Virus record (IMG/VR): IMGVR_UViG_3300006111_000001
Length of the DNA: 59,891 nt
Reading direction: 5' to 3' (one strand)
Source of the DNA: a virus
Position numbers and translations under genes: made by a program. Shown here in pieces: positions 5,567-53,404 of the stretch. The stretch's first letter is position 1. Each line of letters starts with the position of its first letter. The notes below the pieces were generated by a model. That model searched no databases and was not told the DNA's origin. It worked only from the letters and a program-made list of their open reading frames with translations.

Positions 5567-8500
5567 CTATTCGCCATTCCTAGCCCGCATTTTATCTTCC
5601 ATTGCACCTTTGATAATGTCGTTTGGCCCCCCGACACTTTGAGCCGCAATCATATTTGCCGCAGCCGTCCGGCTGGATGAAATCGTTTTGGTGATGGTTT
5701 CCGCCCGGATATTCTTGGGGATTTGCTGCCAGCCCGGATTTTGAACCAAAGCGTTTAATCGCATTTTGGCTAACCGGCCCGCCGTCTGGGCATATTGGTC
5801 ATATTGCTCATCGGTCAAATCCTGCCCTCGGATTGACCGGCGCAATTTCCCAACCCCCAGACCCAAGGCGTTCATTTCCTTAACCACCGAATCATTGGCA
5901 TAACGATCCGCCGTGCCACTTTGCGGGATTGGTTCGCCAAACATATCTCGTTTGGGCAATAGGCCAATTGAGACAAACGGCACCTTGGCCTTGGCGGCAT
6001 CCAATAAGGTCCGCGCTTCGCGTTGATACGGATCGACCGCGTGAGCCACTTGACTCATGCCAACGCTAAACGGCATCCAATTGATGACCATCCCTCGAAT
6101 ATAGCTTTCGCCATATTCTTCCGGATGAAACACCGCATTCAGCATGTCAGACAATCCTTTCATAAAGGTTTCATCCAACACCGCTTTATTAAACCCTTCA
6201 AACGCCGCTTTGGCTAAAACCGTGCCATCTTCACCATCCCAGCCATGCGCGGCTTCGGTCATATTGGCCCCAAACCGCATAAGCATGGCAAACGGCCCCA
6301 GACGGTCATAGGCCACCGACACATCGCCAATGGTAATGTGATTGGGTTTATTGGCCATCAGCCACACACGGCGCTCATTGGGATCAGCAGGGCCATCCCC
6401 GGTCATCAACCCATTTAAGGTCATCATGACGGATGTACCGATTAAAGCCGTGCCGGTGGCGATTTTGCCAAATTGCATGTCTTGAGCAGACCCGCCGTTT
6501 TGCCCGGACAAATTGCCGCGCACGTCCCTATCCAATAAGCCAATGGGCGAGCGTTCAATAAATGCTTCGCGGGTTATTTGGGTGCCAATTTTCATAAACG
6601 GCACAATGATTTTTGCCGCTAGGTTTGAATTGGCCGCAGCTGTTAATTTCCCTGAAAACGAATTGTAATCCGCAGGCGCCATGAATAATTCTTTCATGGC
6701 ATCCGCACTTGCAGCAATCATCATTTCCGGTGTCGGCTTTTGAGTTAATTCCGCAACCCGTCCTTTGAACGCATCCCCGGTCAAACCATCATTCATGGCT
6801 TCCCGATAGGCCAAAGATTGAATGTTTTGCTCATATCGCAGGGATTTAAAAAACGAGTGAATGGCCGCAACCGATTTGGACGGCACATTGATAATTTCGC
6901 CAACCTTGCCCGGAATGGCCCGCGTGTTCATATCGGTAAAATGACCAGATACCTTTTCCCCAGGCAATGCAGGGGAAATGCCGGTTTTAAACGCTTGCGT
7001 TGCCGCCATTAAGCCATCGGATGATCCCTTCATCATGCCGTATAATTGCGCGCCCGCCTCACCTAAATAAACTCGATTTTTGACCTCATAGCCCAAAGCC
7101 TCGCGCGCCGCGCCGACCGCAGACGCCACCGGAATTTCGATCAAAGGACGCGCCAAGGCATTTAACGCATTGCCCACCGAATACCGGGCATGGGTTATCG
7201 GCCCCGAAATCAAAGCATTAACGTAATATTCCAATATGGCGTTTTTGATCGACCCACGGGCGGAATCATTAACAAACTTGGCCACTTGTCCCGGCGTTTG
7301 CAGGTTCATCCCAAATTGCGCTTCTTGCCTTAGTTGTTCCGGTGTCCGGCCAATGGTGCTTTGGAAGAATTGCGCCAACGCTTCGGCATCCGCCGACCCT
7401 TCCAGCTTACGGAATGCTCCCAACGCCCGGCCAGCTTCCGCCGTAATCCCCGCCACTTGCTCTTGAATCATCAAGTGACGTTGCCGCGCTTTGGCATAGG
7501 CCATCACATCGGCATCCGATCCATTGGCCGCTTTTGCCATCAAATCACGCACTTCCGTCGCAGATTGAATTAACAGCTTTCGAGCCGCAAGGATTTGTTC
7601 GGCGTTGAACGCTTCCCCGATCCGGCGCCAATTGAGTTTTGCCGCATTCATGCCCAAAGCATCGGCCAGGTCCAATTGTTCCCCGGCAGAAATCACGCCC
7701 CGCCGTGCGGCCATGAAATCTTCATTATCCGCCGCCGTTTGACGCAAAACTTCTTTTACATCTTCCGGTGTATTGAGATTATCTAACCGGATATTCCCGG
7801 CCTTATCTACAAGGTCTGATTCATCGGTTGCGAACCGCTCATTGGGTCCGGCTGGGTATTCTGTCTTGCTCCCATTAGACCTAGTGCTGCGTCCGCGTGA
7901 TCCGCTGCTTTCTTGAACATCGACCGCACCTCCTCCGGCAGGTCCTGATTGCCCGCCATCATCCGCGCTCTTGATCGGCCCTCTAGCAGATTCTTCCGCC
8001 CGGTATTCATTTTCCAAATCCTCCTCGGTGCGCGGATTGTCGTAATCCGGCACGTTATCACCTTCCCAAGCATCGCCTTTGGCTTCTAAATGAGACTTGG
8101 CCCATTCTTCCGCGTGGCGCAATTCGCGCTCAAAATCCGCTTCCTGAGAATGAATTTCCTTTAATTGTTCTTCGGTTGACATGCGGCTGGCAACTTCATT
8201 CCAGAACTCGCTATGCGACATGCCGTCCGCTTTAATGCCCAATTCCCCGGCAATTCGATCCACTTCGGAATTGTGGTTTAAAGCATCCTGATAGGCTTTA
8301 ACCTTGTCATAATCAAAATCGGAGAATTGATGGTCCCCGTTTACGTCACGGGTTAGCTTTTCCAAAAATTGATTAATCGTGGGACGTTCACCGCCCAATT
8401 CAGGGAAAAACCCGGCTTCTTCCGCCGCTTGCGCCACCCGGTCAATATCTTTGCCCGTTTTGCGCAGCACCCCGCCATTACGCTTGCCACCAAACAATGC

Positions 8501-11047
8501 CGCAATATCGCCCCGATCATTGCCAATTCCGCCATAAGATCGAACAAAATCGGTTAGCGTCGAAGGGCGCGCAGGAACCTTGGAATAAAGCTTTTGCTTT
8601 GAACTAGGGCCAAATTTTAGGTTTGACTCTTGTGGTGGTCCAATGCCTTCAACCTTAGCTTGACCTCCGCCCGCGCCGACCGTTCCAGATTTTTGTATAG
8701 CGCCATTTGTTCCGGTGTCAGGTCCGGACGCATTGACGCCACTGTCAGCACCTTCACTTCGTGCCGGGCTTTCGCCAGGTCCGTTTCCAATTCTTCCAGG
8801 CTGTAATTCATCCGAAATCTCCGAAGCATGTTCATCAGCTACCGCGTGACGCTCATCACGCACCCTATCGCCAACGACCTTTGCTTGGTTCCCCGGCGTG
8901 TGTTCCGCATCGCCTTCATGCAGCGTTGCAAAATCAGCCCCCAAAGCACGATCCGGCGCTATTGTAACCTTTTCCGGGTTGGTTGACAAAAGCCTATCGA
9001 ACACGTCCCGAATATCGTCATTGATAGGCGATTTCAGCCGGGTCACGGTTTCATAAATCTTGGTCAGCCATTGTTTAAATTGATCAAACACCCGCGCTAG
9101 GGTTTGGCTTGGCGCGCGGCCTTCCATCAAATAACGTTCAAACCCGCGCGCAAACTTTTCATGCGCCCGCGTCGGTATGGCCTCATCCTCGCTAACCCCA
9201 AGCCATTTACGCACCGTTGCAGCATCCGCCTTAATTTGATCCGGTGCAGCCTCATGAACGGCATCGGCCATCATTTCTTCTAGAAACTTATGGCCGGTTT
9301 CATGGATAAAAGTTGACGCATCGGCGCCCTTGAACAGTTTGATAATTGTCTTATTTTCCCGGAATTGAACAGAACCCCGCTTGGCTTGCTCATATTCCTT
9401 GGCCGTGATTTCCGGCGCTTGATCCTTTTTTTGCGCCATTTCCCGCACACGTTCGCGCGCGGCTTGGATGACGGCCCCATCCCGGTTAAACAATTCCAAC
9501 GGCGATCCCAGCTTGCCGCCCATGCGCGCCGCCCGTGTTTCATACCTTGCCGCGATTAATTGAGCAGCGGCTTCCGCTTCATCCCTTGGCCGTCCGGCAT
9601 CTTCCAATTGACGCGCGACCCTAGAGGCAATTTGCGCCTTTTGTTGTTCAATCGGCAATTCTGTTTTGGCCGGTGTCTCGTCAGGCTTTACACCCTCCGC
9701 CGCAGGTTCACCCGGTTTAGTCTCGACCGGCTTGGCCGTTTCAGTGACCGTTTCATTTTTCGGTTGCGCAGTTTCCGTTTCACCTTGCTCCCGGCCCTGA
9801 ACGCGCGCCTCATCAACGGCTTGCTCGACTTCCGGTGCGGCTTCTTGCGGCATACGCTCTTGCGCTTCCCGATATGCTTTTGTCACATCCGGCGCTAAAT
9901 CGCGCATTTTATAATCATTTTCTTGCAGCACGCGGCGGATGCGCGCCATGTCCGGCGAATCCAGCTTGGCCGTGCTTTCAATTTCGTCCAATTGATCCCG
10001 CAAATCAGATAACCGGCCCGCTTGACGTTTGGTCAAACGATCTTCGACACCATTAACCTTGGCTAAAATATCGTCAATTTCGCTATTGATTGATTTTACA
10101 TCTTCCCGGTTAGCGTGTGCTTCATCGCGCGTTTCCGACAGCTCATTGAGCCATTTGCGATAGGTATCGCGCCGCGCCACCAAAGCATCGTATTTTTCAA
10201 ACGTATCGGGATCAATTTGACGCGCAATAGAATGAATATCCGGCTGTGCTTCTTGCGTTGTGGCTTGAACCGGCGTTGCCTCCGGTGTCGCTTGAGCCTC
10301 CGCCCCAGCCGCCCCTTGTTCGGCAAGCTGATCTTCTAACGGTTTGACACTGGATTTTAAATCATCCGCCAATGCACCATCGGCCAATGGTTCAGGTTCT
10401 TTCAGTCCAAAATAAACCGCGTCATCCCCGCCAATGACTTTGTTCTTAATGGCATCATTCCAAAACTTTGCCGGTGCCGGATGAAACTTTGACCCAAATG
10501 GAAAGCCCATGGCTTCCATGTCCATAATGCCCGTTACGTCCCGTCCCAGCTTATTCAAGCCAAACACGCCACCCGTTGCATTATTGGCTTCTTCACCCGC
10601 CTGAACGATACCCGCTTGGACGCCGCTATACCCCGCCGCACCTACTCTTAAAGCTGCATTTGCCGCCATGACCGCAGGGCGCATGAACGTATCATTAAAC
10701 CCACCCATGAAACTGGGTTTTTTGGGATCGTTAAACCAACCCAGTTTTTTAAAGAAATCTTCGCTTTCCGGAGACAACGCCATTCCTTCCCAGCCGGTTT
10801 TTACGCCGCCCACAAAAGCATCAGTAATCCTGCCTTCCGGTGTCCCCTTGAACCATTGATTAAATTGGTCAGACGTATTGGCTAAAGGCTGAATAGGCGG
10901 CACTTTTGGCAGACGCGCATCAACACCCGGATAAAATGGCCCAGGTTGAGCAGGCGCATGCTGATCCAGCAATGAATCAACGTCCATTGACTGATTCGGC
11001 GCATGCGCATCCAATAAATCATCGACAGATGACGGCTGATCGGTCAT
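5567..11047 (-). CDS. Giant internal virion/ejection protein (T7 gp16-like position), polyvalent, with HExxH zincin-like motif
   Basis: 1826 aa; last gene of a gp11-gp16-like series. Contains a long acidic, probably coiled region (aa ~220-500) and the motif ...ASTFIHETGHKFLEEMM... (HExxH, codons ~9290..9304). Confidence 0.5.
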   Translation of the reverse strand: MTDQPSSVDDLLDAHAPNQSMDVDSLLDQHAPAQPGPFYPGVDARLPKVPPIQPLANTSDQFNQWFKGTPEGRITDAFVGGVKTGWEGMALSPESEDFFKKLGWFNDPKKPSFMGGFNDTFMRPAVMAANAALRVGAAGYSGVQAGIVQAGEEANNATGGVFGLNKLGRDVTGIMDMEAMGFPFGSKFHPAPAKFWNDAIKNKVIGGDDAVYFGLKEPEPLADGALADDLKSSVKPLEDQLAEQGAAGAEAQATPEATPVQATTQEAQPDIHSIARQIDPDTFEKYDALVARRDTYRKWLNELSETRDEAHANREDVKSINSEIDDILAKVNGVEDRLTKRQAGRLSDLRDQLDEIESTAKLDSPDMARIRRVLQENDYKMRDLAPDVTKAYREAQERMPQEAAPEVEQAVDEARVQGREQGETETAQPKNETVTETAKPVETKPGEPAAEGVKPDETPAKTELPIEQQKAQIASRVARQLEDAGRPRDEAEAAAQLIAARYETRAARMGGKLGSPLELFNRDGAVIQAARERVREMAQKKDQAPEITAKEYEQAKRGSVQFRENKTIIKLFKGADASTFIHETGHKFLEEMMADAVHEAAPDQIKADAATVRKWLGVSEDEAIPTRAHEKFARGFERYLMEGRAPSQTLARVFDQFKQWLTKIYETVTRLKSPINDDIRDVFDRLLSTNPEKVTIAPDRALGADFATLHEGDAEHTPGNQAKVVGDRVRDERHAVADEHASEISDELQPGRIGNGPGESPARSEGADSGVNASGPDTGTNGAIQKSGTVGAGGGQAKVEGIGPPQESNLKFGPSSKQKLYSKVPARPSTLTDFVRSYGGIGNDRGDIAALFGGKRNGGVLRKTGKDIDRVAQAAEEAGFFPELGGERPTINQFLEKLTRDVNGDHQFSDFDYDKVKAYQDALNHNSEVDRIAGELGIKADGMSHSEFWNEVASRMSTEEQLKEIHSQEADFERELRHAEEWAKSHLEAKGDAWEGDNVPDYDNPRTEEDLENEYRAEESARGPIKSADDGGQSGPAGGGAVDVQESSGSRGRSTRSNGSKTEYPAGPNERFATDESDLVDKAGNIRLDNLNTPEDVKEVLRQTAADNEDFMAARRGVISAGEQLDLADALGMNAAKLNWRRIGEAFNAEQILAARKLLIQSATEVRDLMAKAANGSDADVMAYAKARQRHLMIQEQVAGITAEAGRALGAFRKLEGSADAEALAQFFQSTIGRTPEQLRQEAQFGMNLQTPGQVAKFVNDSARGSIKNAILEYYVNALISGPITHARYSVGNALNALARPLIEIPVASAVGAAREALGYEVKNRVYLGEAGAQLYGMMKGSSDGLMAATQAFKTGISPALPGEKVSGHFTDMNTRAIPGKVGEIINVPSKSVAAIHSFFKSLRYEQNIQSLAYREAMNDGLTGDAFKGRVAELTQKPTPEMMIAASADAMKELFMAPADYNSFSGKLTAAANSNLAAKIIVPFMKIGTQITREAFIERSPIGLLDRDVRGNLSGQNGGSAQDMQFGKIATGTALIGTSVMMTLNGLMTGDGPADPNERRVWLMANKPNHITIGDVSVAYDRLGPFAMLMRFGANMTEAAHGWDGEDGTVLAKAAFEGFNKAVLDETFMKGLSDMLNAVFHPEEYGESYIRGMVINWMPFSVGMSQVAHAVDPYQREARTLLDAAKAKVPFVSIGLLPKRDMFGEPIPQSGTADRYANDSVVKEMNALGLGVGKLRRSIRGQDLTDEQYDQYAQTAGRLAKMRLNALVQNPGWQQIPKNIRAETITKTISSSRTAAANMIAAQSVGGPNDIIKGAMEDKMRARNGE

Positions 11048-13389
11048 TGCATTGGCACCGTGGGCTTATAGGCTTCGGTTGCCCATTTGTTATCTAGCAA
11101 AGCTTTTCGCGCTTGGTCGCGCGTGATTTTGCCTTGATTGAAAGCCGTTAGCACATTTTCCTTTGTGGACAAATCCACCGCAGCGGCTTTAACGGGCGCC
11201 GTCTGAGTTGGGACAACCGATTGCGGATTGCCCACCAATACGTCAGCTTGCCATTGATTAAACGGGCGCGCATACCCTTTAGTTAATTCGCCCAAAGATT
11301 CCGGGTTTCCAAAACTCAATAATTTGGCCGGTGGAATGCCTTTTGCCCGACCCTCTTTGTAAGCATCGACAAATGACCCCAAGAAATTTTGATAAAGTTG
11401 ATCCCCCTTGGGATCAACAAACCCCATGTGCTCATTCGAGCCTGTAATTTGACCCTTGGCGGCTTTTAAAAACTCTGTTTGCAATTGCTTTTCGGAATCA
11501 TTTTGCGCCATCAGGGTTTGAAGGTGCTTAAGCCCCTCAAAATTCAACCCGCCATCTTTGAAATGCTGCATTAATTGTGATGGATCGGTAATTTGTGGCC
11601 CATTAGGTGACGGCGCCAAAACTTGCGCGACCAAATCGGGAAAATCCTTGCCATACAACGCCGCGTCTTTGTTCACTCCATGCGCCGCTGCCGTCAAAAC
11701 ATGTGTTTGAATGCTCGTGGCAAATTGCGGAGAATGCGCCATTGACCGTTCCCACGCGGCTTTCACGTCAGGACTAATCGAGGTCAGTTGTTCAATAGAC
11801 GTGGGTTTTTGACCCGTCCGGTTTAATTCCCCGCTGACAGCCTGAACGACCAAATCATTGTCCGCCTTATAAGACATTTCCTGTTGGCGGATTTGGTCAC
11901 CCAATCTCTGCTCAACCCGCGACCGGGCCAAATCCCTGAATTGTTGATCCCCAGGCCGTTGCGCTTCCGCTTGATCTTCCGCTTGCTTGACAATCGCCGC
12001 ATAATTCTGCCGCAAATAATCCGTCGAGGTCAGCATGGGCCGGTTATCGTTCCCAGCCGCATTTGCAACTTTGGTCGGTTTTTGACCCGCGAAAGCTTGT
12101 TCGATTCCTTGCGTTACGGACGTATCGTCAAACGCCGCTCGATCCGCTTGACCCTTTTCAGCGGGAACAATTGCCTTGATTAAGGACGATACCGCCGTTT
12201 TGTCATCCATATTTGGCACCGCATTGGGCGCAAGCCCGGATGCCCTGGACACATTATTGACCCAATTATCCACTTCACTTTGTGGCTGATCCTTGCCCAC
12301 CCATTTGCGCCCGATTTCCGCAAGTGTCATTCCCCGGTAATTATTACGAAGATTGGATGCCGTCGCGTTCACCCCATCGGCAGGTGTCGCATAGTTTTCA
12401 AAATCCGGCACATTATTGGCAATGCCATAAGCAGATTTGATATTTCCAGGGTTATTAGACCCTTTATTCAGCCCATTGGTAAATGTCTGGGTCGCTGTTC
12501 CAATGACATTATCGGCAATGGACCGGGTTTGCGCGTCTTTAATCTTGGGCTGCAAAAACGCTTCAATCTGAACTTGAGCCGTGCCGGGAATGCGCGACCG
12601 ATTGTCTTGAAACAATTTTGCCGCCATATCGACATTGGAATTGGACAGCGTGCGCAGTCTTTCTTCCCATGCCTTACCCACGGCGGTATCTCGAACGGAT
12701 TGATAAACGGACGACGCCCGCTTGCCATTTTCGCTGTCGTCAAATGATAACAACCCATCATCTTGTTGGGTCATGCCCGTACCAGCATCCCATCCTTGGG
12801 TTTGCATTTGACGCGCCACGCCAAAATTCACGTCATGCAAAATATCTTCAAACCGCATGTCATTGGCGGCAATGGATGAATCCCCAGCCCTTGAGACAGC
12901 CGTTAAAACCGACGCATGGGCGGAATCCGCGTCCGCCTTTTTAACTTGGGTCGCGGAATAATTATTGGCATCCGAAAGCGCATAACCCTCATGCCTTAAT
13001 GCCAATGTGGTAAACGCTTTTTGAACCGCAGGATTGGGCAGCGTTTCTAACAATTGTTGACGTAAATCTTGAACGTCTTGACTATATTGAGGAAGGGCCG
13101 CAACCGCCGCCAAGCCCTCTTTTGACTTATACGCCGCGCTCAATTTGGACAATTGGTCCATATAAGTTGTTTCGGCATTTGTGGCCATTGTCTCGTTCAG
13201 CATGCCTTGTTGTTTCAGGGCAATATCACCAGCTTCTTGACCGGCATGCTGAACCGATTGACCCAATCCCGAAATAGCAGACGCAACCCCGGCGCCAAAC
13301 GCATCCGGAGACGCATTGACATTCAAAAACCCACCGGATGGTCCGTTAGGTTGAACGCTCGGTATGGCGTCGGGCGTTGCAATGGGCAT
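11044..13389 (-). CDS. Internal core protein (T7 gp15-like by position and size)
   Basis: 781 aa, helix-rich, between the gp14-like and gp16-like ORFs; start/stop overlaps (ATGA) with neighbours. Confidence 0.45.
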   Translation of the reverse strand: MPIATPDAIPSVQPNGPSGGFLNVNASPDAFGAGVASAISGLGQSVQHAGQEAGDIALKQQGMLNETMATNAETTYMDQLSKLSAAYKSKEGLAAVAALPQYSQDVQDLRQQLLETLPNPAVQKAFTTLALRHEGYALSDANNYSATQVKKADADSAHASVLTAVSRAGDSSIAANDMRFEDILHDVNFGVARQMQTQGWDAGTGMTQQDDGLLSFDDSENGKRASSVYQSVRDTAVGKAWEERLRTLSNSNVDMAAKLFQDNRSRIPGTAQVQIEAFLQPKIKDAQTRSIADNVIGTATQTFTNGLNKGSNNPGNIKSAYGIANNVPDFENYATPADGVNATASNLRNNYRGMTLAEIGRKWVGKDQPQSEVDNWVNNVSRASGLAPNAVPNMDDKTAVSSLIKAIVPAEKGQADRAAFDDTSVTQGIEQAFAGQKPTKVANAAGNDNRPMLTSTDYLRQNYAAIVKQAEDQAEAQRPGDQQFRDLARSRVEQRLGDQIRQQEMSYKADNDLVVQAVSGELNRTGQKPTSIEQLTSISPDVKAAWERSMAHSPQFATSIQTHVLTAAAHGVNKDAALYGKDFPDLVAQVLAPSPNGPQITDPSQLMQHFKDGGLNFEGLKHLQTLMAQNDSEKQLQTEFLKAAKGQITGSNEHMGFVDPKGDQLYQNFLGSFVDAYKEGRAKGIPPAKLLSFGNPESLGELTKGYARPFNQWQADVLVGNPQSVVPTQTAPVKAAAVDLSTKENVLTAFNQGKITRDQARKALLDNKWATEAYKPTVPMQ

Positions 13390-13925: not shown

Positions 13926-14378
13926 TTACCGCCTCAATTCAAATCGCCGAAACAAGGCCCGCTTTGGTCCAAATTCAACGGGCGGACCAAGATCAAACCC
14001 CAGAATCAAAAGAAACCCACAGGCTTGCACGTAGGATGCCAGCACATAATTTTCCAATAAAGGAAACATTGCTTGCATCTTGGCCACTTCGCGCCGCCCT
14101 TCCCTTACAAAAGAAAATGGCACGCGCTCAATAGCCTCAGACGTTAAAAGCCATGGATAACCCACACCCGATAAGACCGATCCGCCAACCCCAAACATGC
14201 ACGCAATGTCGCCATCAACAAATGCCGTGCGTCGAATAATGCTACCACGAAACGCCTTAAACAGCGCCCGATTGGGCGACATGCCCACGGACGTTAATTC
14301 TAATTTATCACCCCGACGCAGCTTATCTGCCAACATCGAAACGTGATTTAATTGCGCGGGAACAATTTGATACCTCAC
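13926..14378 (-). CDS. Small virion protein (T7 gp13-like by position)
   Basis: 150 aa; directly downstream of the tail-tubular-B-like gene; synteny only. Confidence 0.35.
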   Translation of the reverse strand: MRYQIVPAQLNHVSMLADKLRRGDKLELTSVGMSPNRALFKAFRGSIIRRTAFVDGDIACMFGVGGSVLSGVGYPWLLTSEAIERVPFSFVREGRREVAKMQAMFPLLENYVLASYVQACGFLLILGFDLGPPVEFGPKRALFRRFELRR

Positions 14379-20457: not shown

Positions 20458-20490
20458 TATAGCGCTCCAAAATTAGTTATAGGGTCAAAA

Positions 20491-20520
20491 CCCTCCCGGT
20501 TTTTAGGCCGGGAGGGCCAG
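20491..20520 (-). terminator. Putative intrinsic terminator after the capsid gene block
   Basis: Perfect 9-bp GC-rich inverted repeat CCCTCCCGG / CCGGGAGGG with an 8-nt loop, followed on the transcribed (minus) strand by UUUU; sits between the 169-aa ORF and the next gene. Confidence 0.4.
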
Positions 20521-22946: not shown

Positions 22947-23298
22947 TCTCCGAAATCATTAAGGCGGCATTGGCAGGATCGACAGCGCACAAGAAACGCA
23001 ACAGGTTTAGACCAACTTCACGTTGACCCTCGTAAAACCCGTTTTCGTGTTCCCCCGTCATACTTATGCGCTTTTCCCAAATGCCCGTATCTGAAAGGAT
23101 TTGCCACAGCCATTCACGGCCATAAAGCGACCCCAAAATAGTCGCAGCGACCTCCCGCCGTTTAACTTCCCTTACTTGCGACTCTTGCTCCGCCAGCTTT
23201 ATTGCTTTTGGATCAGAGGCATCAAAGGCCGGTTTTTTGGTACGTGGACGACGCGGCAAGTTCATAGCCTTAACCACTAACCCGACGCATAAGCGCAA
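22930..23298 (-). CDS. Hypothetical protein
   Basis: 122 aa; real start may be the internal ATG near 23264 because the recurrent TGCGTCGGGTT motif lies within the annotated N-terminus. Confidence 0.35.
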   Translation of the reverse strand: MRLCVGLVVKAMNLPRRPRTKKPAFDASDPKAIKLAEQESQVREVKRREVAATILGSLYGREWLWQILSDTGIWEKRISMTGEHENGFYEGQREVGLNLLRFLCAVDPANAALMISENDQRA

Positions 23299-23428
23299 AT
23301 GTTCAAATGGGTCACAGATGGGTGCTAAATGATGTAATGATGGGTGCTGATATGGGTAAAAAGCAGTCTTGAAAATTGCTGCGTCGGGTTATCATTAATT
23401 CATAAATCAACCATCATGAGGCCAAGGC

Positions 23429-23614
23429 ATGATGTCCACTAGCGCAGAGACAAACGCCCCCGTTGCGTACCCATTGGTGCGCGTCAATTTATATATGGCT
23501 GAACACGTCATTAGGCTGATCGACAATGAAGCAATCCGCCGTGGTGTCAGCCGGTCAGAAATGATCCGGCGCGGGCTTGATCCGATGTTGGAAAAATTAC
23601 GGGGTGCCAGGTGA
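23429..23614 (+). CDS. Ribbon-helix-helix (CopG/Arc-like) DNA-binding protein
   Basis: 61 aa; ...EHVIRLIDNEAIRRGVSRSEMIRRGLDPMLEK is a typical RHH pattern; the only plus-strand gene inside the minus-strand late operon. Confidence 0.55.
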   Translation: MMSTSAETNAPVAYPLVRVNLYMAEHVIRLIDNEAIRRGVSRSEMIRRGLDPMLEKLRGAR

Positions 23615-24474: not shown

Positions 24475-25820
24475 TCAGATTGATTAACCGTCACTTGATC
24501 TTCGAGATAGACCGGCACTTGGAATGTCACCCCGCGCTTAGGATGGGTCCACCAAAGAGCTTGAATAGGCGACTGATACCGCGCGCGCAGGAATAGCCGC
24601 GCATATTCGTCATAACCTTTCAACGTTCCGTTTACGATCACGCCGGGCAGCGGCAAGTATTGATGCCAATGCCCCATAATGACGGTATCGAAATCCCGGC
24701 CAATTTGAGATTCGGAACCGTGCAGCTTCACGGTCCCGCGCAGGATCGGCCCTAATGCGCCAATGATTCCATCGCCGCCCTTAACCCCCAGCGCATCACC
24801 ATGGGTTAAAAGATACCGATGCCCCGCCACGCAATAATGGGCATCCGTTTCCCCAGGAATATAAAACCGTACCCGGTCATCGCCCGCAAACCGCTGTTCA
24901 AGCCACGTATAAAGCAGCCATTCATAAGACGTGTGAACCCGTTGCTTTGACCTTGGCTTTTTGCCCATACGCCCATGATTGCCCACGACGCAAGGCACAA
25001 ACACTTTGCCAAACCGCTCTGCCATGGTTTCAATGGCGCGAATCAATTGACCCATTAGCCAAACTAAAGTTGGCGCCGTCCGCATTTCATTGGTCTGGGT
25101 CAATTCATCGTGCAGGTCATCCCCGGAAATCATATCCCCGCCCAAATTGACTACAATACCGGGATATTCAGGGGATGATAAGTGATGGATGCACAAATCA
25201 ACAATGCGCTCGACCAGCGATTTTATGCGCCGTTCGGCAATTTCAAGATTGAATTCATTGACCCCCGCCACTTCAATCCGGTCAACCCGCTCGCCCACAT
25301 GCCAATCTGACCACATCGTACTAGGTACGCCAGGCGCCCCCGCCACACTGGTTGAATTAACAACCCAATCAGGAATAATGATCGGCAACCGGGACAGGTT
25401 GAATATTTCTTCCCTGATCCGTTCAGCGGATAGGCTTTCCCGGTGCGCCTCGGTCAATTGCTTTGTTAAAACATCAATCCGGTCTTTGAACTTGATCCGC
25501 TCGCGTTCGGCAAGTGGCGTTTGATCAAGCGCAATGCTAACCGGCTCTCCCGATATTTGTTCAAATGTGCCATCCGATTTTAACCGGAATCGCGGCTTTT
25601 CATTGGCAGCTTTCGGTATCTCTGACGCAACCAGACCTCGTTTAAACCCGGCATTACACCGCGTTTCGAATGTCCCGCGCGGGATTCCCTTGTCTCCCGT
25701 GGGCTGCATTTGCTTATCAAGAACCGACGCAAATTGCGACGCCATCAAATGCGTTTTATGCCGGGCATATAAATCCACAGCTTCTTGCAATGCCCATTGT
25801 GGAATTTTATGCCCGGCCAT
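24453..25820 (-). CDS. Calcineurin-like metallophosphoesterase
   Basis: 455 aa; ordered motifs GGDMISGDD, GNHG, THGD, GHWH typical of the metallophosphatase fold; N-terminal ~200 aa extension. Confidence 0.7.
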   Translation of the reverse strand: MAGHKIPQWALQEAVDLYARHKTHLMASQFASVLDKQMQPTGDKGIPRGTFETRCNAGFKRGLVASEIPKAANEKPRFRLKSDGTFEQISGEPVSIALDQTPLAERERIKFKDRIDVLTKQLTEAHRESLSAERIREEIFNLSRLPIIIPDWVVNSTSVAGAPGVPSTMWSDWHVGERVDRIEVAGVNEFNLEIAERRIKSLVERIVDLCIHHLSSPEYPGIVVNLGGDMISGDDLHDELTQTNEMRTAPTLVWLMGQLIRAIETMAERFGKVFVPCVVGNHGRMGKKPRSKQRVHTSYEWLLYTWLEQRFAGDDRVRFYIPGETDAHYCVAGHRYLLTHGDALGVKGGDGIIGALGPILRGTVKLHGSESQIGRDFDTVIMGHWHQYLPLPGVIVNGTLKGYDEYARLFLRARYQSPIQALWWTHPKRGVTFQVPVYLEDQVTVNQSDWVRWAA

Positions 25821-25827
25821 GGTTCAC

Positions 25828-27513
25828 CTATGCCGCAACTTGAACTTTAACCGTCTCAGGCGGCAAATACCTTGCTCGCTCCTCATCGGTTAAGGTTGCA
25901 GGGTTTTTGCACGTGACTTCCAACGTCCCCAAATGAACCACTTGGAATGTCAAATCAACATCGCACCAGATTTGATACCCAGCTTTGCGAACCTTGCGAC
26001 AGAAATTCAAATCTTCCGAAAAATACAAAAATTCTTTGCCGTCATGGCCCAAAGTGTAATTCTCGTTGATCCACTCCGCTAATGGCGTGCCATCCAAACT
26101 GTCCAAAACCTCTTGCGGCGGCACGTCCGTAAAATAATCTTTCAGCAAAGATTTGAACCCATCCAGCCGGGTTTCACCTTGCCAATGATAGGTTTCAAAA
26201 TATGACGGCCATTGCGTCTTGCGGTACACATCACATTTGACCAGCAACAACCCGCCAGGCAGCAACAAAGCTTCCTGTAACCCGCCTTCCATAACCGATT
26301 GCGGGTTTTTAAAGGTCCCCAATGTTTCATAGGGCGGCACGCGCTTATTATAAGTCGCGCCCACAATGTCTTTCTTGTGGTTCAACAACCGAATAAGCGT
26401 ATCCGGTGGAAACTTCATATCTGAATCCACCCACAGGATAAAATCGCATCCTGTATCCAAAGCTTTTTGAACCGTGGAGTTGCGGGAATGCGTAATCATC
26501 GAAGATTGAACATTGATAATGGCGGTATCAATCCCGGCCCGTGCCGAATAAGTCAGCAGCCCCGCCACATCAACCGCCGTTCCCGCTTCCCATGTCCGGC
26601 CAGATGGAATAGCAATACCCACCCGCAACGGACGCGGGATGGATTTTTTAATCTCAGCAATGTGCTTTTCAGCCGCCGCTTTGATTTGCAAATACTTGTC
26701 AGATGGCGCGTGATCCATCTTGGCCGACACTTGCTTGATCAATTCCGGATTGCGCAGGTGCTTAATCTTTTCATAGCAAAAGGCTTGGGCTTGCGGCAAA
26801 CGTTCAAGCATGGCCCGGAACGCAGCCGTTTCTTTGCCGCCAAACGCCACTTCACCCAGAATAAACGCGTCTCGGCACCGAACAGGATGCGTTGCCTCAA
26901 AATAGCCAAGCCAAAATTCAAACTCAACCAAACCGTGAGTAAGCCCCTTGCCTTCGGGCATTAACACATCAAGATCAACCTCGATCAATTGGCCAAACAC
27001 CGTGGCGATTTCATCCCACCACGTATCGCCAAACCAATTTGGAAACCCATTGGGCATGAAATACCCAAGTGTCTCATAGACCTTGCGAGGAATGACCGGC
27101 AGAGACGGAAACCCCTGATGCCCCGCATCCCGCAGGTGCATGACCCCAATCCCATTGACCAGTCCCTTGGCCGCATTAAAAATGCGATTGGGCCATTTGG
27201 CATCATCATCCAAAGTATAGTCATCGGCAAAAGCCATCAGATACTTACCTTGAGATTTTTCAGCCAAAGCATTGTAAACCGCTGCCAATGTCCCATGTCG
27301 CTCACCCAGCACGACGGACAATTGCCGACCGGGGATTTCAAGCGTGCCAAGCAATTCAACCGCTTCGGTATAAGTTGAATCGTCGTCGTCTAGTGCAATA
27401 AGCACTTCGACATTTGGCGGGATTTTGCGGTTAATCATCAAAGATGATACGGCGCGCAAAAGATTGCCGGGACGACCCCGCGACGGGATCAGGACAGAAA
27501 TTTCAATGGTCAT
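25828..27513 (-). CDS. Two-domain glycosyltransferase (GT-A fold, GT2-like N-domain plus second DxD domain)
   Basis: 561 aa; N-terminus ISVLIPSRGRP...ALDDDDS (GT2-like); second domain with WVDSDMKF (DxD) and C-terminal FSEDLNFCRKVRKAGYQIWCD. Confidence 0.65.
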   Translation of the reverse strand: MTIEISVLIPSRGRPGNLLRAVSSLMINRKIPPNVEVLIALDDDDSTYTEAVELLGTLEIPGRQLSVVLGERHGTLAAVYNALAEKSQGKYLMAFADDYTLDDDAKWPNRIFNAAKGLVNGIGVMHLRDAGHQGFPSLPVIPRKVYETLGYFMPNGFPNWFGDTWWDEIATVFGQLIEVDLDVLMPEGKGLTHGLVEFEFWLGYFEATHPVRCRDAFILGEVAFGGKETAAFRAMLERLPQAQAFCYEKIKHLRNPELIKQVSAKMDHAPSDKYLQIKAAAEKHIAEIKKSIPRPLRVGIAIPSGRTWEAGTAVDVAGLLTYSARAGIDTAIINVQSSMITHSRNSTVQKALDTGCDFILWVDSDMKFPPDTLIRLLNHKKDIVGATYNKRVPPYETLGTFKNPQSVMEGGLQEALLLPGGLLLVKCDVYRKTQWPSYFETYHWQGETRLDGFKSLLKDYFTDVPPQEVLDSLDGTPLAEWINENYTLGHDGKEFLYFSEDLNFCRKVRKAGYQIWCDVDLTFQVVHLGTLEVTCKNPATLTDEERARYLPPETVKVQVAA

Positions 27514-30800: not shown

Positions 30801-31157
30801 CCGAGCAGCGATGCCTTGGCCGTTGTCGCCGGTGTCGTTAAGCCACCAGCCCCGCCATCATTCTTGACAGTCCCGCTAAATCCCGCACCCGCCGCAGCAG
30901 CAGCTTTGCCCTTTTGTGAATTGCCAGCCTGATCGACATTTGCATTGGCCATAATTGGCGGCGCCGCAGCCGGTGGCACAGCAGGAATAACAGGAGCTTG
31001 AGGTGTCGGAGGTGACGAAAATAACGCGCCCAAAGGTCAATCCTCACGGTTAAGTGAGGCAAAATCTAAACCCGACGCATGGTCATTTGTGTTCTATGGG
31101 TGCGAATTGCACCCTATATGCCCCACGATTGGGGGCGGCAAAGCGGATATTTGGGTG

Positions 31158-31952
31158 CTATCGCTTGCCCCATGCAGAGGCGAGAGGATTGTAATCAACT
31201 TCATGTTTGTTTGGTCGCAACCCAGCGCGCACGCGGTAATCGTCAACCGGACGAAATGCGGCAATGTCAATCCCGCTCATAATCCCATACCGCATGCAGT
31301 CCATTAAATGGTCATTTTCTTTGACCACTTGCCCCTTATCGTCCCGGCGATAAATGCGATACTCGCTTAACGTATTTTGCAGCGTTTTAAATATTTTAAG
31401 CCGCCCCGTCGATAATCGCATCCAGGTCCGATATATGCCCGCTTCCCTCGCATTATTGGCCGTAATCAGCGTTAATCCTAATTGTTGATATTCCCATAAC
31501 AATTGCTCGCCATCCTTTTGTGCTCGACCGCGTGACGCCGGATCAATAACCCCCGGTATCCACTCTCCGCGCGCCTTAATGGCTTGAGCGTGAGTCGATG
31601 GTTCAGCCTGCCCGCGATAATGTTCAGAATAAGCGTAAACCACGTCCGATTCGGTATCATGCGCAAACCACAATCCCGCCGTTCTATTCCATCCCACGTC
31701 CATGGCGTAAAAATGTTTCCAATGAGCGGGTATTTCGAACGGATCACAGGTCACGTCATCTTCCGGCACCGGATAAATGGCGCCCGATCCAAGGGCCGGA
31801 ATGCCTTTGGTGCGCGCGTCCCGTTCATGCGGAGCATAAGACTTAATCATTTCCGCTTGCGCTTCCGCTGATATGTGCGGAACGTCTGCCCAGGAAACGA
31901 ATGTAATGTATTTCGCCATTTCCGTTAGCCGTTTTGCAAAGCAACGGCCCAA
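31158..31952 (-). CDS. terL: Terminase large subunit, C-terminal nuclease portion
   Basis: 264 aa; RNase-H-like terminase nuclease pattern (…HFYAMDVGWNRTAG…, …ENDHLMDCMRYG…). Probable true start is MAKYITF at ~31919, 5 nt after the HNH stop. Confidence 0.7.
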   Translation of the reverse strand: MGRCFAKRLTEMAKYITFVSWADVPHISAEAQAEMIKSYAPHERDARTKGIPALGSGAIYPVPEDDVTCDPFEIPAHWKHFYAMDVGWNRTAGLWFAHDTESDVVYAYSEHYRGQAEPSTHAQAIKARGEWIPGVIDPASRGRAQKDGEQLLWEYQQLGLTLITANNAREAGIYRTWMRLSTGRLKIFKTLQNTLSEYRIYRRDDKGQVVKENDHLMDCMRYGIMSGIDIAAFRPVDDYRVRAGLRPNKHEVDYNPLASAWGKR

Positions 31953-32449
31953 CGCTTGCCGCGAACAATGCGCCCAATTTGCGTTTGTTTTACCCCAAAC
32001 ATTTCACCTAATTGTCGTTGATAAAATTTGCCGCTTTTCCAAAGGCTTAATATCTTACGCACATCATCGACAGACAAGACGGCGTTATGATGCCGCTCAC
32101 CCATCAAACTTGTCCCATGCTTTCGCTTGTCCAAATGATTTGACGACCGAGTATCCCATCTTAGATTTGAATAATGGTTATTCGATGGATCGCCGTCGAT
32201 ATGGCAAATTTCCGCCCCGTCAAACGGCTTTAACCCTATAAAAGCATACGCAACCAATTGATGAGCTTTTTTGTGGATCGACTTACCATCCTTACGCAAA
32301 ATCACCATTGGATAGCCGTCAGATCGAATCCACATCTTCAATATTTTGCCAATGCGCGCGCCGGGAGCAGCCGTAACGCGACGAACAGCGCCCCATTCAC
32401 TAACTTCATAATCCTCAAAACCAGGCACAATCCGCCATTCAGCAATCAT
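31925..32449 (-). CDS. HNH homing endonuclease inserted within terL
   Basis: 174 aa; N-terminal NUMOD4-like (YEVSEWGAVRR) and HNH core (HQLVAYAFIG…ICHIDGDPSNNHYSNLRWDTRSSNH). Start overlaps the TerL-ATPase stop (ATGA). Confidence 0.8.
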   Translation of the reverse strand: MIAEWRIVPGFEDYEVSEWGAVRRVTAAPGARIGKILKMWIRSDGYPMVILRKDGKSIHKKAHQLVAYAFIGLKPFDGAEICHIDGDPSNNHYSNLRWDTRSSNHLDKRKHGTSLMGERHHNAVLSVDDVRKILSLWKSGKFYQRQLGEMFGVKQTQIGRIVRGKRWAVALQNG

Positions 32450-33219
32450 GACTTAACCTCCCCTTCCAAACGCGCACCACCCGGCATGAATGAAAGAACC
32501 ACAGCCGAAAGGCCGCGCAGCGGCGTGAACCCGCATATCACCAACCCGGACGGTTGACCGGGCACGGTCGAAAGCGTTCGAGTTAAGCCTTCCGAGTAAA
32601 TGTCCAATGGCGGTTCTTCATCAAATTGCATAATGTCGATTTTGGCCGCTTGGAACGATTCACGCCCCTGATCATAGGATTTAAACAGCATCCGCGACAC
32701 GCCGCCCGATAAATGCTTGACCGTCACGCTATCCACAGCATCCGGCACGCCCGGCCTTGGTGTCGCCTTGATGATATTGTCAGCCGGTATTAAACCCGTG
32801 CCATGGTCCCCGGTTGGCCCCAAATACGTCACTTGCAAGGATTCGCGGACGGCCTTGGTATCTTCGCCCGCCGCCCACATGGTCACAGGGCGATCAAACT
32901 TGCGCCCAACCCACCAATGGGGATACCAACCAGTTAAATGAAGGGCGCACTCATACGAACACCCAAACGTCTTTCCCGATCGGTTGCCGCCGACCAAAGC
33001 CCGCTCTTGATACGTGGCCCCAGCCGCAAAATGGGCCAAATGCTTAGGGTATAATTCGCGCCGCAATGGCCCGGTATCAGGATAAGCCCGGTAAAGCAGC
33101 GTCTTGCGGTAAATGTCATGCTCTAATTCGATAATGGCCTTAAGGCGCGCATAATCATCCACCGGCAGCGCTGCCAATTGTTCTGGCGTCAGCGCCGCAA
33201 CTTCATCGAACAAAGCCAC
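32446..33219 (-). CDS. terL: Terminase large subunit, N-terminal ATPase portion
   Basis: 257 aa; Walker A (GGNRSGKT), Walker B-like (IDIMQFDEEPP); ends where the HNH ORF begins. Confidence 0.75.
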   Translation of the reverse strand: MALFDEVAALTPEQLAALPVDDYARLKAIIELEHDIYRKTLLYRAYPDTGPLRRELYPKHLAHFAAGATYQERALVGGNRSGKTFGCSYECALHLTGWYPHWWVGRKFDRPVTMWAAGEDTKAVRESLQVTYLGPTGDHGTGLIPADNIIKATPRPGVPDAVDSVTVKHLSGGVSRMLFKSYDQGRESFQAAKIDIMQFDEEPPLDIYSEGLTRTLSTVPGQPSGLVICGFTPLRGLSAVVLSFMPGGARLEGEVKS

Positions 33220-33421
33220 ATTCGCCGCCTAACCGATGGTACAATGCTTTTACAGCCAGAAACGCCATAACCGGGCAATAGCCCGTTTCCCAATTCTGAA
33301 CCGTGCGCGCGGTCACGTCTAATACCAAAGCCAATTCAGCACGCGATAGGCCCAATAATTCCCGATATTCAGCCAATCGAGCGGCAAAATTGACCTGTTT
33401 GGAAATATTTTCAGTAACCAC
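33203..33421 (-). CDS. Small HTH (XRE-like) protein
   Basis: 72 aa; …LGLSRAELALVLDVTARTVQNWETG… helix-turn-helix pattern. Confidence 0.45.
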   Translation of the reverse strand: MVTENISKQVNFAARLAEYRELLGLSRAELALVLDVTARTVQNWETGYCPVMAFLAVKALYHRLGGECGFVR

Positions 33422-34802: not shown

Positions 34803-34845
34803 GTATTTTCACCCGACGCAGCCAGCACCGACAAGCAAAAAACCA

Positions 34846-35406
34846 TTACCCAAACCTCCGCCCGACAAATTCCGCATGCCGCTTAAATGACCGCTCCCGC
34901 TTCTTATCCAAAGGAAAATAAGCAATGGCAGCGTGATCCGCGCAATATGGCTTATTCGATAACTTTGCGTCTTGGCAGTAACGCCAAACATTATCTTGCG
35001 GCCCCGGATTGCCATAGACCCAGCAGCACCCGCACGGTTCTTTAACACCCTCACCGGCCACAACATCACCCCACGCCGGATCAATCGGCAGTGATTTAGA
35101 TACCAAGCGCGGCTTCATTGGTTCAGTGACCAGCCTGGGCATCCGCAGCCCTTTAAACCCCATCACGCGCTTTGCATGTGCCTTGGCCTTTGGCTTTTGT
35201 TCGACCGGCTCCTGATCCGCCCCCTTGGCATTTGACAGCTTAAGCCCCAACCGCCGCAATTGCCCCATAACTGCATTGCGCGTGATATGCCATCCAGCCG
35301 CCTCCGAAGCAATTAAAGCAATCTGGCTGGACGATGCCCCAGGAGTTTTTTCCCAAGCCTCTCGAATGTATTTGCGCGAGTCCGAAATCTGAATGGCGTT
35401 TCTCAT
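34846..35406 (-). CDS. GcrA-like cell-cycle regulator homolog
   Basis: 186 aa; N-terminal …SSSQIALIASEAAGWHITRNAVMGQLRRLGLKL matches the GcrA N-terminal DNA-binding pattern; C-terminal …CGCCWVYGNPGPQDNVWRYCQDAKLSNKPYCADHAAIAY matches the GcrA C-terminal Cys/His pattern. Confidence 0.7.
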   Translation of the reverse strand: MRNAIQISDSRKYIREAWEKTPGASSSQIALIASEAAGWHITRNAVMGQLRRLGLKLSNAKGADQEPVEQKPKAKAHAKRVMGFKGLRMPRLVTEPMKPRLVSKSLPIDPAWGDVVAGEGVKEPCGCCWVYGNPGPQDNVWRYCQDAKLSNKPYCADHAAIAYFPLDKKRERSFKRHAEFVGRRFG

Positions 35407-36771: not shown

Positions 36772-37032
36772 TCAACCCGCCTTCCGGTTACGCTTGCGCG
36801 TGCCGCGCAGGTGCATAATTGACGTGTGATCCCGATTTAATAATCGCCCCATTTGTGCGCACGACAACCCCAGCGGGGCCATCGCCATTACAGCAGCCCG
36901 ACGAGCCGCAACCAATTCACGAAACCGAGCCTCGCCTTTAATTTCATCAATGGTAAACCCATGGGATTTAGCCACTTCTGCAATGACATACCGGCCACGC
37001 TCAAAACTGTTAATGTGCTCAGGAATAATCAT
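36772..37032 (-). CDS. DnaA domain IV-like HTH protein
   Basis: 86 aa; …AARRAAVMAMAPLGLSCAQMGRLLNRDHTSIMHLRG… resembles the DnaA C-terminal DNA-binding signature (…RDHTTV…). Confidence 0.55.
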   Translation of the reverse strand: MIIPEHINSFERGRYVIAEVAKSHGFTIDEIKGEARFRELVAARRAAVMAMAPLGLSCAQMGRLLNRDHTSIMHLRGTRKRNRKAG

Positions 37033-37907
37033 GCGGCATCCCCAAATAAATTTGATTGCCGATCAACGGAATCCAAATACCGGCACGCCTGGCGCCAATA
37101 AGCCTCTTTCAGTTCCGTGCCAATAAACTTTCGGCCTAGCTTGAGAGACATATACCCCTCAGATCCAATCCCCATAAATGGGCTCAAAACCACATCCCCG
37201 GCATTGCTCCACATAATCAAGGCCCGCTCAATCACATCAAGCTGCAATGGACACAAATGGCGCTCATCATTATGTTCCCGCGCCATGTGGACGTTCAAAA
37301 CATTGGATTGGTTGACAGTCATCCATACCGGGCTGGCCCATTCCTGCCATTGTTCAACGGGGAAATCTTCCGGCGTATGAGTGATAGGATCAGCATTCTC
37401 GCCCGGTTTCACAAACGTCAAAAGGTAATCGGGCATCCCGCCGCGACTTTTGGCGCTGTCTTTTTTTAGCTGCTTATAAAGCAAGCCGACATGCTTTGTA
37501 CGGGTCATTTCCGTGACAGGGCATTTCCAGATCGTGCGCCGTGAATGCAAAATCCATCCTTCCGCCTCATGAGCACGAATAATTTGCCCGCTGAAATCCT
37601 TGATCCCAACCGCGCCATCTTTCCATTTAGTCATCGGGAGATCGGAGCAATGAACGGCAGTCAGCCGCCCAGGTTTGGTTACACGGAATTTTTCGCGCAC
37701 CAAAAATTGATAATGGGCTGCAAATTCTTCATCAGTAGAATTGCCCATATCGGCGGCACTGGTCGAATAAACAAACAGCGATCCGAAAGGCGGCGAATAG
37801 ACCGAAAAATCAATGCTTTCGCTCGGTAACTGGCTTATGACGCTAACGCAGTCTCCGTTGAACGCCGCAAACCGCTCGCCGTGGTATTCGTTGTCGCAGT
37901 CAACCAT
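37029..37907 (-). CDS. DNA methyltransferase, N4/N6 class (beta permutation; SPPF motif)
   Basis: 292 aa; catalytic motif IV as …DFSVYSPPFG… precedes an AdoMet motif I-like …DVVLSPFMGIGSEG…; SPPF/SPPY is commonest in N4-cytosine enzymes but does not fix specificity. Confidence 0.7.
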   Translation of the reverse strand: MVDCDNEYHGERFAAFNGDCVSVISQLPSESIDFSVYSPPFGSLFVYSTSAADMGNSTDEEFAAHYQFLVREKFRVTKPGRLTAVHCSDLPMTKWKDGAVGIKDFSGQIIRAHEAEGWILHSRRTIWKCPVTEMTRTKHVGLLYKQLKKDSAKSRGGMPDYLLTFVKPGENADPITHTPEDFPVEQWQEWASPVWMTVNQSNVLNVHMAREHNDERHLCPLQLDVIERALIMWSNAGDVVLSPFMGIGSEGYMSLKLGRKFIGTELKEAYWRQACRYLDSVDRQSNLFGDAA

Positions 37908-53395: not shown

Positions 53396-53404
53396 TACCG
53401 GCTC

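Follow-up and report, generated by a model that had tools for sequence, protein, structure and literature searches.

A sharply defined word before late genes of an uncultured podophage: a probable late-promoter element, with a GcrA-family protein as its possible reader

At the late promoters of phages such as T4 (TATAAATA, gp55/gp33) and at the activator-dependent ones of Mu and P2/P4, a short word stands before each late unit in the orientation of its genes and is absent from early regions, and a phage-made factor retargets the host RNA polymerase. Phage lambda combines a single late promoter with antitermination; its regulator gene Q lies directly upstream of the first site of action, qut at PR', at the boundary of early and late genes, and the element sits within the core promoter. 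Outside phages, the sigma-70 cofactor GcrA of Caulobacter crescentus acts at host cell-cycle genes through boxes of the form YGAKTCG, which contain an adenine-methylated GANTC (N6-methyladenine, m6A). GcrA binds as a monomer to region 2 of sigma-70, and its boxes lie mostly at -20 ± 1 or -30 ± 2, within the spacer between -35 and -10 (PMC9976885). A further class of boxes is centered at +5 to +30 relative to the transcription start. In its contacts with TGATTCG, the DNA-binding domain uses R33 for T and G, R42 for C and G, and I37, N34, and H41 for the methyl groups and central bases, and G38 takes part as well (PMC5887438). Here we analyzed a viral DNA of 59,891 nt (IMG/VR record IMGVR_UViG_3300006111_000001, the whole of which we call the window) in which an 11-nt word, TGCGTCGGGTT, with the 8-nt core TGCGTCGG, recurs upstream of the virion genes. 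We argue that this word is probably an element of the phage's late promoters, and we weigh the possibility that a GcrA-family protein encoded by the phage reads it.

The exact 11-mer occurs four times in the window, at 5541-5551, 23279-23289, and 31069-31079 on the minus strand and at 23380-23390 on the plus strand, where 0.04 occurrences were expected; none of 100 dinucleotide shuffles reached four. Allowing a single mismatch raised the count to eight copies (1.5 expected), adding 34810-34820 (TGCGTCGGGTG), 58287-58297, and two coding copies at 12906 and 14310, all on the minus strand. Because no excess was left once two mismatches were tolerated (23 copies versus 21.8 expected), the motif appears to be sharply defined. 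The 8-nt core was found 10 times against an expectation of 3.0, a count that none of 100 shuffles attained, and the search for it brought in two further copies, one at 5505-5512, where it is the second ahead of the tail-fibre gene, and one within coding sequence at 25724-25731. A first-pass annotation had described the word as far above chance, and these counts bear that out. Its five copies are all present, with one correction: the minus-strand copy that it began at 34811 begins at 34810.

The copies are also placed and oriented like signals for transcription. All 10 cores are in the sense orientation relative to the local gene, and the sole plus-strand copy precedes the sole plus-strand gene of the region, which encodes a ribbon-helix-helix (RHH) protein. 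On our own gene map, intergenic DNA makes up 5.8% of the window; it contains all four exact copies and 6 of the 10 cores (the 34810 copy and 5505-5512 among them), and one more core, at 58287, lies at a gene junction. The word is therefore neither equally frequent in coding DNA nor randomly oriented, and the original observation, including the orientation it gave for the copies, stands. Start codons follow the motif's last base by 7 to 66 nt, depending on the site, so the 10 to 50 nt first proposed was roughly right.

The distribution is late-only. Every copy lies within the roughly 37-kb late (virion) region downstream of the GcrA-like gene, where copies head the packaging, portal, capsid, tail-fibre, and terminal blocks. 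Between about 35.4 and 57.6 kb there is no copy, which leaves the lysogeny arm, the moron block, and the replication part of the leftward arm free of the word. As the motif stands before each block of virion genes and always points toward those genes, a late-promoter signal is the most likely reading. In these respects the word resembles the T4, Mu, and P2 late-promoter words, and here too a phage-made factor would retarget host RNA polymerase. Unlike the T4 word, however, it is rich in G+C and lies upstream of the -10 element rather than replacing it; the P2 and Mu sites are dyads at -55 or over the -35 element, and the present word has no such dyad. The family of the factor proposed below, GcrA, also differs from the T4, Mu, and P2 factors in having no known role in a late switch.

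Followed along transcription, the first copy (TGCGTCGGGTG, 34810-34820, minus strand) begins 25 nt past the GcrA-like stop codon, and the next start codon is either ATG 34802, at 7 nt, or ATG 34796, at 13 nt; small membrane-protein genes, TerS, and TerL follow downstream. The arrangement recalls lambda: where early genes give way to late ones, a candidate regulator gene directly precedes the site at which its product would first act, and the element would again be part of the core promoter. Here, in contrast, there are many copies and at least one terminator-bounded unit with a copy of its own, instead of one late promoter and antitermination. The exact copy at 31069-31079 (minus strand) occupies a 124-nt gap between the C-terminal part of TerL and a 78-aa gene followed by portal, 35 nt before TTG 31033; it is flanked by TAGAAC 11 nt upstream and TAGATT immediately downstream. 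In the leader after this copy, a hairpin (CCTCAC-ttaacc-GTGAGG, 31040-31063, minus strand) pairs with GAGGA, the ribosome-binding site for the 78-aa gene, whose translation it may control.

The exact copy at 23279-23289 (minus strand) stands 13 nt before ATG 23265 and heads a unit comprising a 111-aa gene, the protease/scaffold gene, the major capsid protein gene, and a 169-aa gene. Directly after the gene that follows the major capsid protein gene, an 11-bp hairpin (10 G-C pairs and one G-U pair; centroid, -22 kcal/mol) followed by TTTT lies at 20485-20518 on the minus strand. This is probably an intrinsic terminator that raises capsid over tail expression. Since the capsid unit opens at the 23279 copy and closes at this strong hairpin, at least one unit is bounded by a motif and a terminator. 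Facing the opposite way, the exact copy at 23380-23390 (plus strand) is followed by TATCAT and is separated by 38 nt from the RHH start codon, ATG 23429. Between this gene and the capsid unit, transcription diverges from a gap of 163 nt (23266-23428) that must hold two promoters, and the two outward-facing copies within it fit a promoter reading.

The same pair invites a different explanation, in which the copies are crossover sites of the serine recombinase/invertase encoded at 53405-54031, or have simply arisen by chance. It is true that the 23279 and 23380 copies flank a 90-nt segment as perfect inverted repeats of 12 nt, that the phage has a resolvase/invertase gene, and that one copy precedes tail-fibre genes. 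Yet sites of invertases such as Hin and Gin, at about 26 bp, are far longer than the 12-nt arms found here, most copies are direct repeats tens of kilobases apart, and all 16 of the 16 population contigs compared were collinear, with no inversion. With chance ruled out by the shuffles, we regard this explanation as scarcely credible.

Before the tail-fibre gene the word occurs twice. The exact copy at 5541-5551 (minus strand) lies in the gap between the gene for an 1826-aa internal virion protein and the tail-fibre gene, 66 nt from ATG 5474 or 48 nt from TTG 5492. A core-only copy of TGCGTCGG follows 39 nt downstream in the same gap (5505-5512, minus strand) and is itself followed by CATAAC/TAACAT. 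The remaining copy at a gene boundary, the one-mismatch TGCGTCGGCTT (58287-58297, minus strand), overlaps the last seven codons of a 144-aa gene and lies 15 nt before ATG 58271. The small gene that starts there encodes a hydrophobic N terminus, lies past the window junction in the direction of transcription, and is possibly a lysis gene.

Consistent sense orientation close to start codons is also what would be expected if the word acted in RNA, as a translational signal in the 5' leader, an RNase site, or a loading site for an antiterminator, with promoters lying farther upstream; the 90 nt between the two copies of the divergent gap would leave room for two such promoters. The distance to the start codon, however, varies from 7 to 66 nt, which excludes a uniform action on the ribosome site. 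No secondary structure is common to the copies, only the 5541 copy being able to pair its AACC with GGTT, the window has no Rfam match, and the 58287 copy lies within upstream coding sequence. An RNA role would also leave unexplained the -10-like block that follows the motif at a fixed distance, and we consider it very unlikely.

No sequence upstream of the motif is conserved across sites. In the 7 nt that follow the 11-mer, which include no motif bases, A+T reaches 73%, compared with 52% in intergenic DNA (P = 0.0016). Hexamers resembling a -10 element with A at the second position occur here (TATCAT, TAGATT, GAAAAT, TATCAG, CATAAC/TAACAT, GATAAA, TAAAGA, and TAGTGG), and in 8 of the 10 cores a TAnnnn or GAnnnn hexamer starts at motif position 10 to 12. 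The best TATAAT score at motif positions 10 to 13 averaged 3.3, against a background of 1.6 in either random or intergenic-only positions (P ≤ 2e-4). This score is slightly favored because the T of the motif itself at positions 10 and 11 can serve as the first base of the hexamer, which makes the A+T comparison the cleaner test. Sequences resembling a -35 element (TTGnnn or TAGACC) lie 16 to 17 nt from the putative -10 at 5541, 34810, 58287, and 14310, 20 nt away at 23279 and 31069, the strongest-looking sites, and 14 to 15 nt away at 23380. At two promoters T(T/A)GAACA stands 11 nt upstream of the motif with CCCAT before it. Taken with the different word of the nearest distinct relatives (below), this suggests that promoters of late genes in this lineage may join a -35-like element that is shared to a spacer word that is lineage-specific.

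At three sites the late ATG falls 13, 13, and 15 nt after the motif, that is, 8 to 9 nt past the -10-like hexamer, which suggests by analogy that these three units are leaderless or nearly so, as the cI and cro units also appear to be. In the divergent early promoters of the latter (42375-42457, both strands), the elements are TTGGAA-17-TAATGT-6-ATG (42458) for cI and TTGACG-17-TATAGA-7-ATG (42374) for cro; canonical sigma-70 hexamers thus end 6 to 7 nt before the ATGs, which would imply leaderless mRNAs. These two promoters also indicate the kind of sequence that the host polymerase recognizes.

The CGTC within the word suggests another kind of promoter, in which the motif would contain the -10 element of a host extracytoplasmic function (ECF) sigma factor, transcription would start near the motif's 3' end, and short leaders would carry AAGG-type ribosome sites. 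The -10 elements of ECF promoters are commonly CGTC or CGTT, GAAC lies upstream at two sites, and a start near the motif end would retain the AAGG before ATG 23265 in the mRNA. The GAAC-to-CGTC distance is 13 nt, however, rather than the 16 to 17 nt that separate the GGAAC-type -35 element from the -10 in known ECF promoters, and GAAC is absent at the other sites. Domain scans of most open reading frames (ORFs), including all large ones, detected no phage RNA polymerase or sigma factor, and the conserved GGGTT and the downstream A/T-rich block would go unexplained. An ECF promoter therefore strikes us as decidedly unlikely.

Returning to a sigma-70 promoter with a dedicated element, we conclude that TGCGTCGG(GTT) is probably the specific element of this phage's late promoters. 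The first-pass proposal of a promoter element or regulator-binding site is supported, on computational grounds, by the placement, the orientation, the restriction to late genes, the outward-facing pair in 23266-23428, and the coupled -10-like block. In the architecture that we envisage, the motif would sit in the spacer and lead straight into a weak -10-like hexamer (TAnnnn, from motif position 10 to 12), which would put GCGTC at about -21 to -17, with its center at about -19 to -20. Host sigma-70 RNA polymerase would initiate a few nucleotides farther downstream, giving three leaderless or nearly leaderless units and leaders of roughly 20 to 50 nt for the remaining units. With their poor -35 and -10 elements, such late promoters would be silent until a phage factor that recognizes the motif is made.

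What kind of protein might that factor be? The motif is a single asymmetric word of strict polarity, present once per promoter (twice at the tail fibre), which argues for a monomeric or sigma-like reader rather than a dimeric helix-turn-helix (HTH) or RHH protein. The gene next to the first copy encodes a 186-aa GcrA-family protein (34846-35406, minus strand) with an N-terminal three-helix DNA-binding domain, a disordered linker of ~65 residues, and a C-terminal domain of the sigma-interacting type. Its product matches PF07750 (E = 2e-11) and, over residues 22 to 172 and thus both domains, Caulobacter GcrA in the Protein Data Bank (7ye1_G; E = 8e-9). It also matches the NCBIfam model "sigma 70 cofactor GcrA" (E = 5e-13), but the score of 49.6 bits against a 280-bit orthologue cut-off means that it is not an orthologue. 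In an AlphaFold2 model (30 family members), the helices in residues 2 to 53 have a predicted local distance difference test score (pLDDT) of about 95, residues 55 to 120 are disordered, and the C-terminal domain has a pLDDT of 77 to 94; the top two Foldseek hits of this model were GcrA chains, both weak matches.

The recognition helix is TRNAVMGQLRRLGL in the phage protein and TRNAVIGKVHRLGL in Caulobacter GcrA. R33, N34, G38, and R42 are kept, and among the base contacts only I37 (to M) and H41 (to R) are changed. The TGCGTCG of the motif agrees with the Caulobacter box YGAKTCG at six of seven positions; the mismatch is the methylated A, replaced by C, and T, G, T, C, and G are retained where the conserved arginines read. 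The Caulobacter box itself is depleted across the phage genome (10 occurrences versus about 32 expected, only 1 of them intergenic), and GANTC is reduced to about half (194 versus about 372).

Compared with the Caulobacter system, then, the phage has a protein with the same order of DNA-binding domain, linker, and sigma-interacting domain, encoded next to the first copy. Its word is likewise a single non-palindromic site, of 7 to 11 nt, that suits a monomeric reader, and the likely position is again the -35/-10 spacer, the predicted center of about -19 to -20 agreeing with the -20 ± 1 class. The phage site differs in being GCGTC rather than GANTC, so that CcrM cannot methylate it, the methylatable A having given way to C; the word is also 4 nt longer (GGTT), and the presumptive targets are phage late genes instead of host cell-cycle genes.

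By this analogy, the phage GcrA-family protein may read the motif, an assignment that we offer tentatively. Its gene is the final one of the early/replication operon and ends 25 nt before the first copy; like Caulobacter GcrA, the protein would sit as a monomer on region 2 of sigma-70 while its N-terminal domain read the asymmetric spacer word. The fuller scenario is possible but doubtful: a GcrA cofactor would have been captured and retargeted from m6A-GANTC to the adenine-less TGCGTCGG, creating an early-to-late switch that opens at least seven weak late promoters, several of them leaderless. More speculative is the idea that the C in place of the methylated A is 5-methylated by a phage Dcm-type enzyme and read through the methyl pocket (I37M); the phage does encode a C5-cytosine (Dcm-like) DNA methyltransferase (39467-40654, minus strand), which is relevant here to this speculation only. 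The pieces of the GcrA link fit together, while each is weak alone.

GcrA-like, HTH, and RHH proteins had all been named at the outset as candidate binders; of these, the GcrA-like protein is the best fit and the RHH protein the poorest, given the single asymmetric word and a separate repeat that looks like an RHH-type operator. Four ATGGGT(GC) repeats lie between the divergent motif copies (23307-23357, plus strand; starts at 23307, 23318, 23340, and 23352; spacings of 11, 22, and 12 nt), and a palindrome with the same half-site, GGGTGC-N5-GCACCC (31098-31114), begins 18 nt upstream of the 31069 copy. The repeat 8-mer, ATGGGTGC, is not enriched across the genome (5 versus 3.4 expected). Judged from their sequence, the repeats and palindrome are perhaps an operator for a dimeric regulator, for which the adjacent RHH protein is a candidate, and they may add a second, repressive layer at two late promoters.

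Readers other than the GcrA-like protein have to be considered all the same. The motif could be the operator through which another DNA-binding protein of the phage turns the late units on or off, with host sigma-70 using neighboring core elements. The candidates are all phage encoded: an 86-aa HTH protein of the DnaA domain IV type (36772-37032, minus strand; PF08299, E = 3e-10), which resembles the class of GafY and HdaB (PMC9632790), an XRE-type HTH protein (33203-33421), and the RHH (CopG-type) protein (23429-23614, plus strand), whose gene has its own motif copy upstream, as an autoregulated gene would. A precedent is at hand in the same alphaproteobacterial clade, where GafY, a homologue of DnaA domain IV, activates about 20 promoters of the Caulobacter gene transfer agent (GTA) and a GafZ element occupies the -35/-10 spacer (PMC11150451, PMC9632790). 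Like the GafYZ/GafA system, the phage has a small DnaA domain IV-type protein, and the specific element of the GTA promoter (ZBE) lies in the spacer, the position proposed for the present word; the GTA activator contacts sigma-70.

The differences are nevertheless substantial. Dyads or tandem repeats are the usual targets of RHH and XRE proteins, whereas the motif is a single asymmetric, polar word, and the separate ATGGGTGC or GGGTGC-N5-GCACCC repeat beside two copies looks like an operator of that type; the RHH protein more plausibly reads these repeats than the motif. The gene for the DnaA domain IV-type protein lies in the replication module, adjoining a primosomal-type gene. GafY binds far upstream together with IHF, not in the spacer (PMC11150451), and the ZBE is a palindrome at one promoter only, in contrast to an asymmetric word at seven or more sites; we identified no GafZ homologue in the phage. 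An operator for one of these proteins is in our judgment unlikely.

Several observations count against reading the word as a late-promoter element bound by the GcrA-like protein. Three cores lie inside genes (12909, 14313, and 25724). The first belongs to a one-mismatch copy in a 781-aa gene (12906-12916, minus strand), probably a chance match. The second belongs to a sense-oriented one-mismatch copy in the internal-virion-protein gene 13926-14378 (14310-14320, minus strand), which is followed by GATAAA and might represent an internal promoter or mere coincidence. The third, TGCGTCGGTTC (25721-25731, minus strand), lies about 90 nt into a 455-aa exonuclease-like gene and is of uncertain status. 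The -10-like hexamers are weak (TAGTGG and TAAAGA, for instance), and the -35-like hexamers are poor and irregularly spaced. A generic sigma-70 consensus scan picked up none of the motif sites, which would be expected of activator-dependent promoters and is at the same time a weakness of the model. As to the GcrA-like protein, the chance of finding a six-of-seven match somewhere in an 11-mer is roughly 0.04 by our own calculation, and GANTC, the hallmark of the GcrA box, overlaps no copy of the motif, whose core is GCGTC. Because I37M and H41R are also found in other members of the GcrA family, they form no specific signature.

Comparison with relatives lends no support either. All motif-bearing contigs in the viral, genome, and metagenome collections that we searched are ≥99.87% identical to the window and hence uninformative, and the motif is absent from portal relatives at ≤66% identity. 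Two of these relatives (L005 and L006, 63% portal identity) share another word, TTGAACTA, in two late gaps (3732-3852 in L005; 434-502 and 3612-3732 in L006). Finally, in a crude scan with rough ORF calls, 78 other viral loci with GcrA-like genes showed no general dispersed intergenic TGNNTCG word.

The relatives had been sought by pattern- and portal-based scans of those collections, and the nearest distinct ones have 63 to 66% portal identity and 60% G+C. The word TTGAACTA may be the late-promoter word of L005 and L006. Repeated 10-mers in the portal relatives were also considered as dispersed oriented words and were rejected, being clustered iterons or operators. A GcrA-like gene was within reach in a single portal relative (L028). 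The GcrA-like protein has no relative among phage records by tblastn, and an indexed protein search returned only the protein itself and one 32% match; an exhaustive search yielded 753 GcrA-family members, the nearest at about 40% identity. One viral contig with a GcrA-like protein (L178) carries cacTGATTCG, of the canonical GcrA-box type, three times in intergenic DNA (7398-7409 and 9079-9085), one of the three standing 16 nt upstream of an ATG. When the motif was looked for in the literature, only unrelated oligonucleotides came up, and a tRNA scan of the window gave no match. To our knowledge, the motif bears no resemblance to the LexA, CtrA, or DnaA boxes.

The genome in which the word is found is complete. 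Positions 1 to 120 and 59772 to 59891 are identical over 120 nt, so the window represents a circularly assembled genome of about 59.8 kb (~59.77 kb). The assembly may be circular or circularly permuted, and an ORF from ATG 460 (minus strand) spans the window junction. By its gene content the window is a novel temperate podophage with an alphaproteobacterial host, to which the encoded GapR, GcrA, and CcrM-like methylase point. A megablast search of phage records with 20 kb of the window gave no near DNA match, the best portal matches among deposited phages fall below 40% identity, and the identical contigs come from bog-lake metagenomes.

Our gene map, based on domain scans and on gene calls of identical public contigs, shows a plus-strand lysogeny/recombination arm with a cI-type repressor (42458-43120), SSB, and an integrase (50323-51375), followed by a low-GC moron block with a resolvase and a glycosyltransferase. 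A single long leftward arm originates at the cro-type gene (ATG 42374). Its first part, devoted to replication and DNA modification, encodes GapR, RusA, the C5-methylase, a helicase, an N6-methylase, the DnaA domain IV-type protein, and a primosomal-type protein; GapR lies at 41082-41360 and the CcrM-like N6 methylase at 37029-37748. Next comes the GcrA-family gene, after the replication genes and before a virion module of the T7/BPP-1/epsilon15 type (TerS, split TerL, portal, protease/scaffold, major capsid protein, tail tubes A and B, internal virion proteins, and tail fibres), which extends over the window ends as far as 57.4 kb.

Some of these genes merit description in their own right. 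The large terminase (31158-33219, minus strand) is split over three frames with short overlaps into an ATPase (32446-33219), an ORF for an HNH/NUMOD4 homing endonuclease (31925-32449), and a nuclease (31158-31952), and the small XRE-type HTH gene (33203-33421) lies between TerS and TerL. In the lysogeny arm, 44180-44740 (plus strand) encodes a pentapeptide-repeat protein with strong 15-nt periodic self-similarity in its DNA; it may mimic DNA or be a moron that serves defence or anti-defence. The low-GC block at 51400-57400 (46 to 47% G+C) contains a T5orf172/GIY-YIG-like gene (51615-51983), the serine recombinase/invertase gene (53405-54031), and a GT61 glycosyltransferase gene (55662-56834); a second glycosyltransferase gene, at 25828-27513, lies within the late region. 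These genes may be seroconversion morons.

GcrA homologues have been known in phages since the phiCbK genomes, where they were only guessed to manipulate the host cell cycle (PMC3556154). Late-promoter consensus words are themselves well known; what is new here lies in the sequence itself, in its likely placement within the spacer, and in the reader proposed for it. We know of no target site put forward for any phage GcrA homologue. The present phage offers a compact case, with one GcrA-like gene, a sharply defined word at every late unit, and a geometry like that predicted from GcrA-RNA polymerase structures, and its box departs from the host box exactly at the methylated base. Should the link to GcrA fail, a clean late-promoter consensus of an uncultured bog-lake phage would still be left, useful for annotation if otherwise ordinary. 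If the link holds, it would show that a sigma-70 cofactor can be re-specified by few changes, it would provide an orthogonal pair of promoter and activator that could be put to use, and it would define a new class of late-gene switch in alphaproteobacterial phages.

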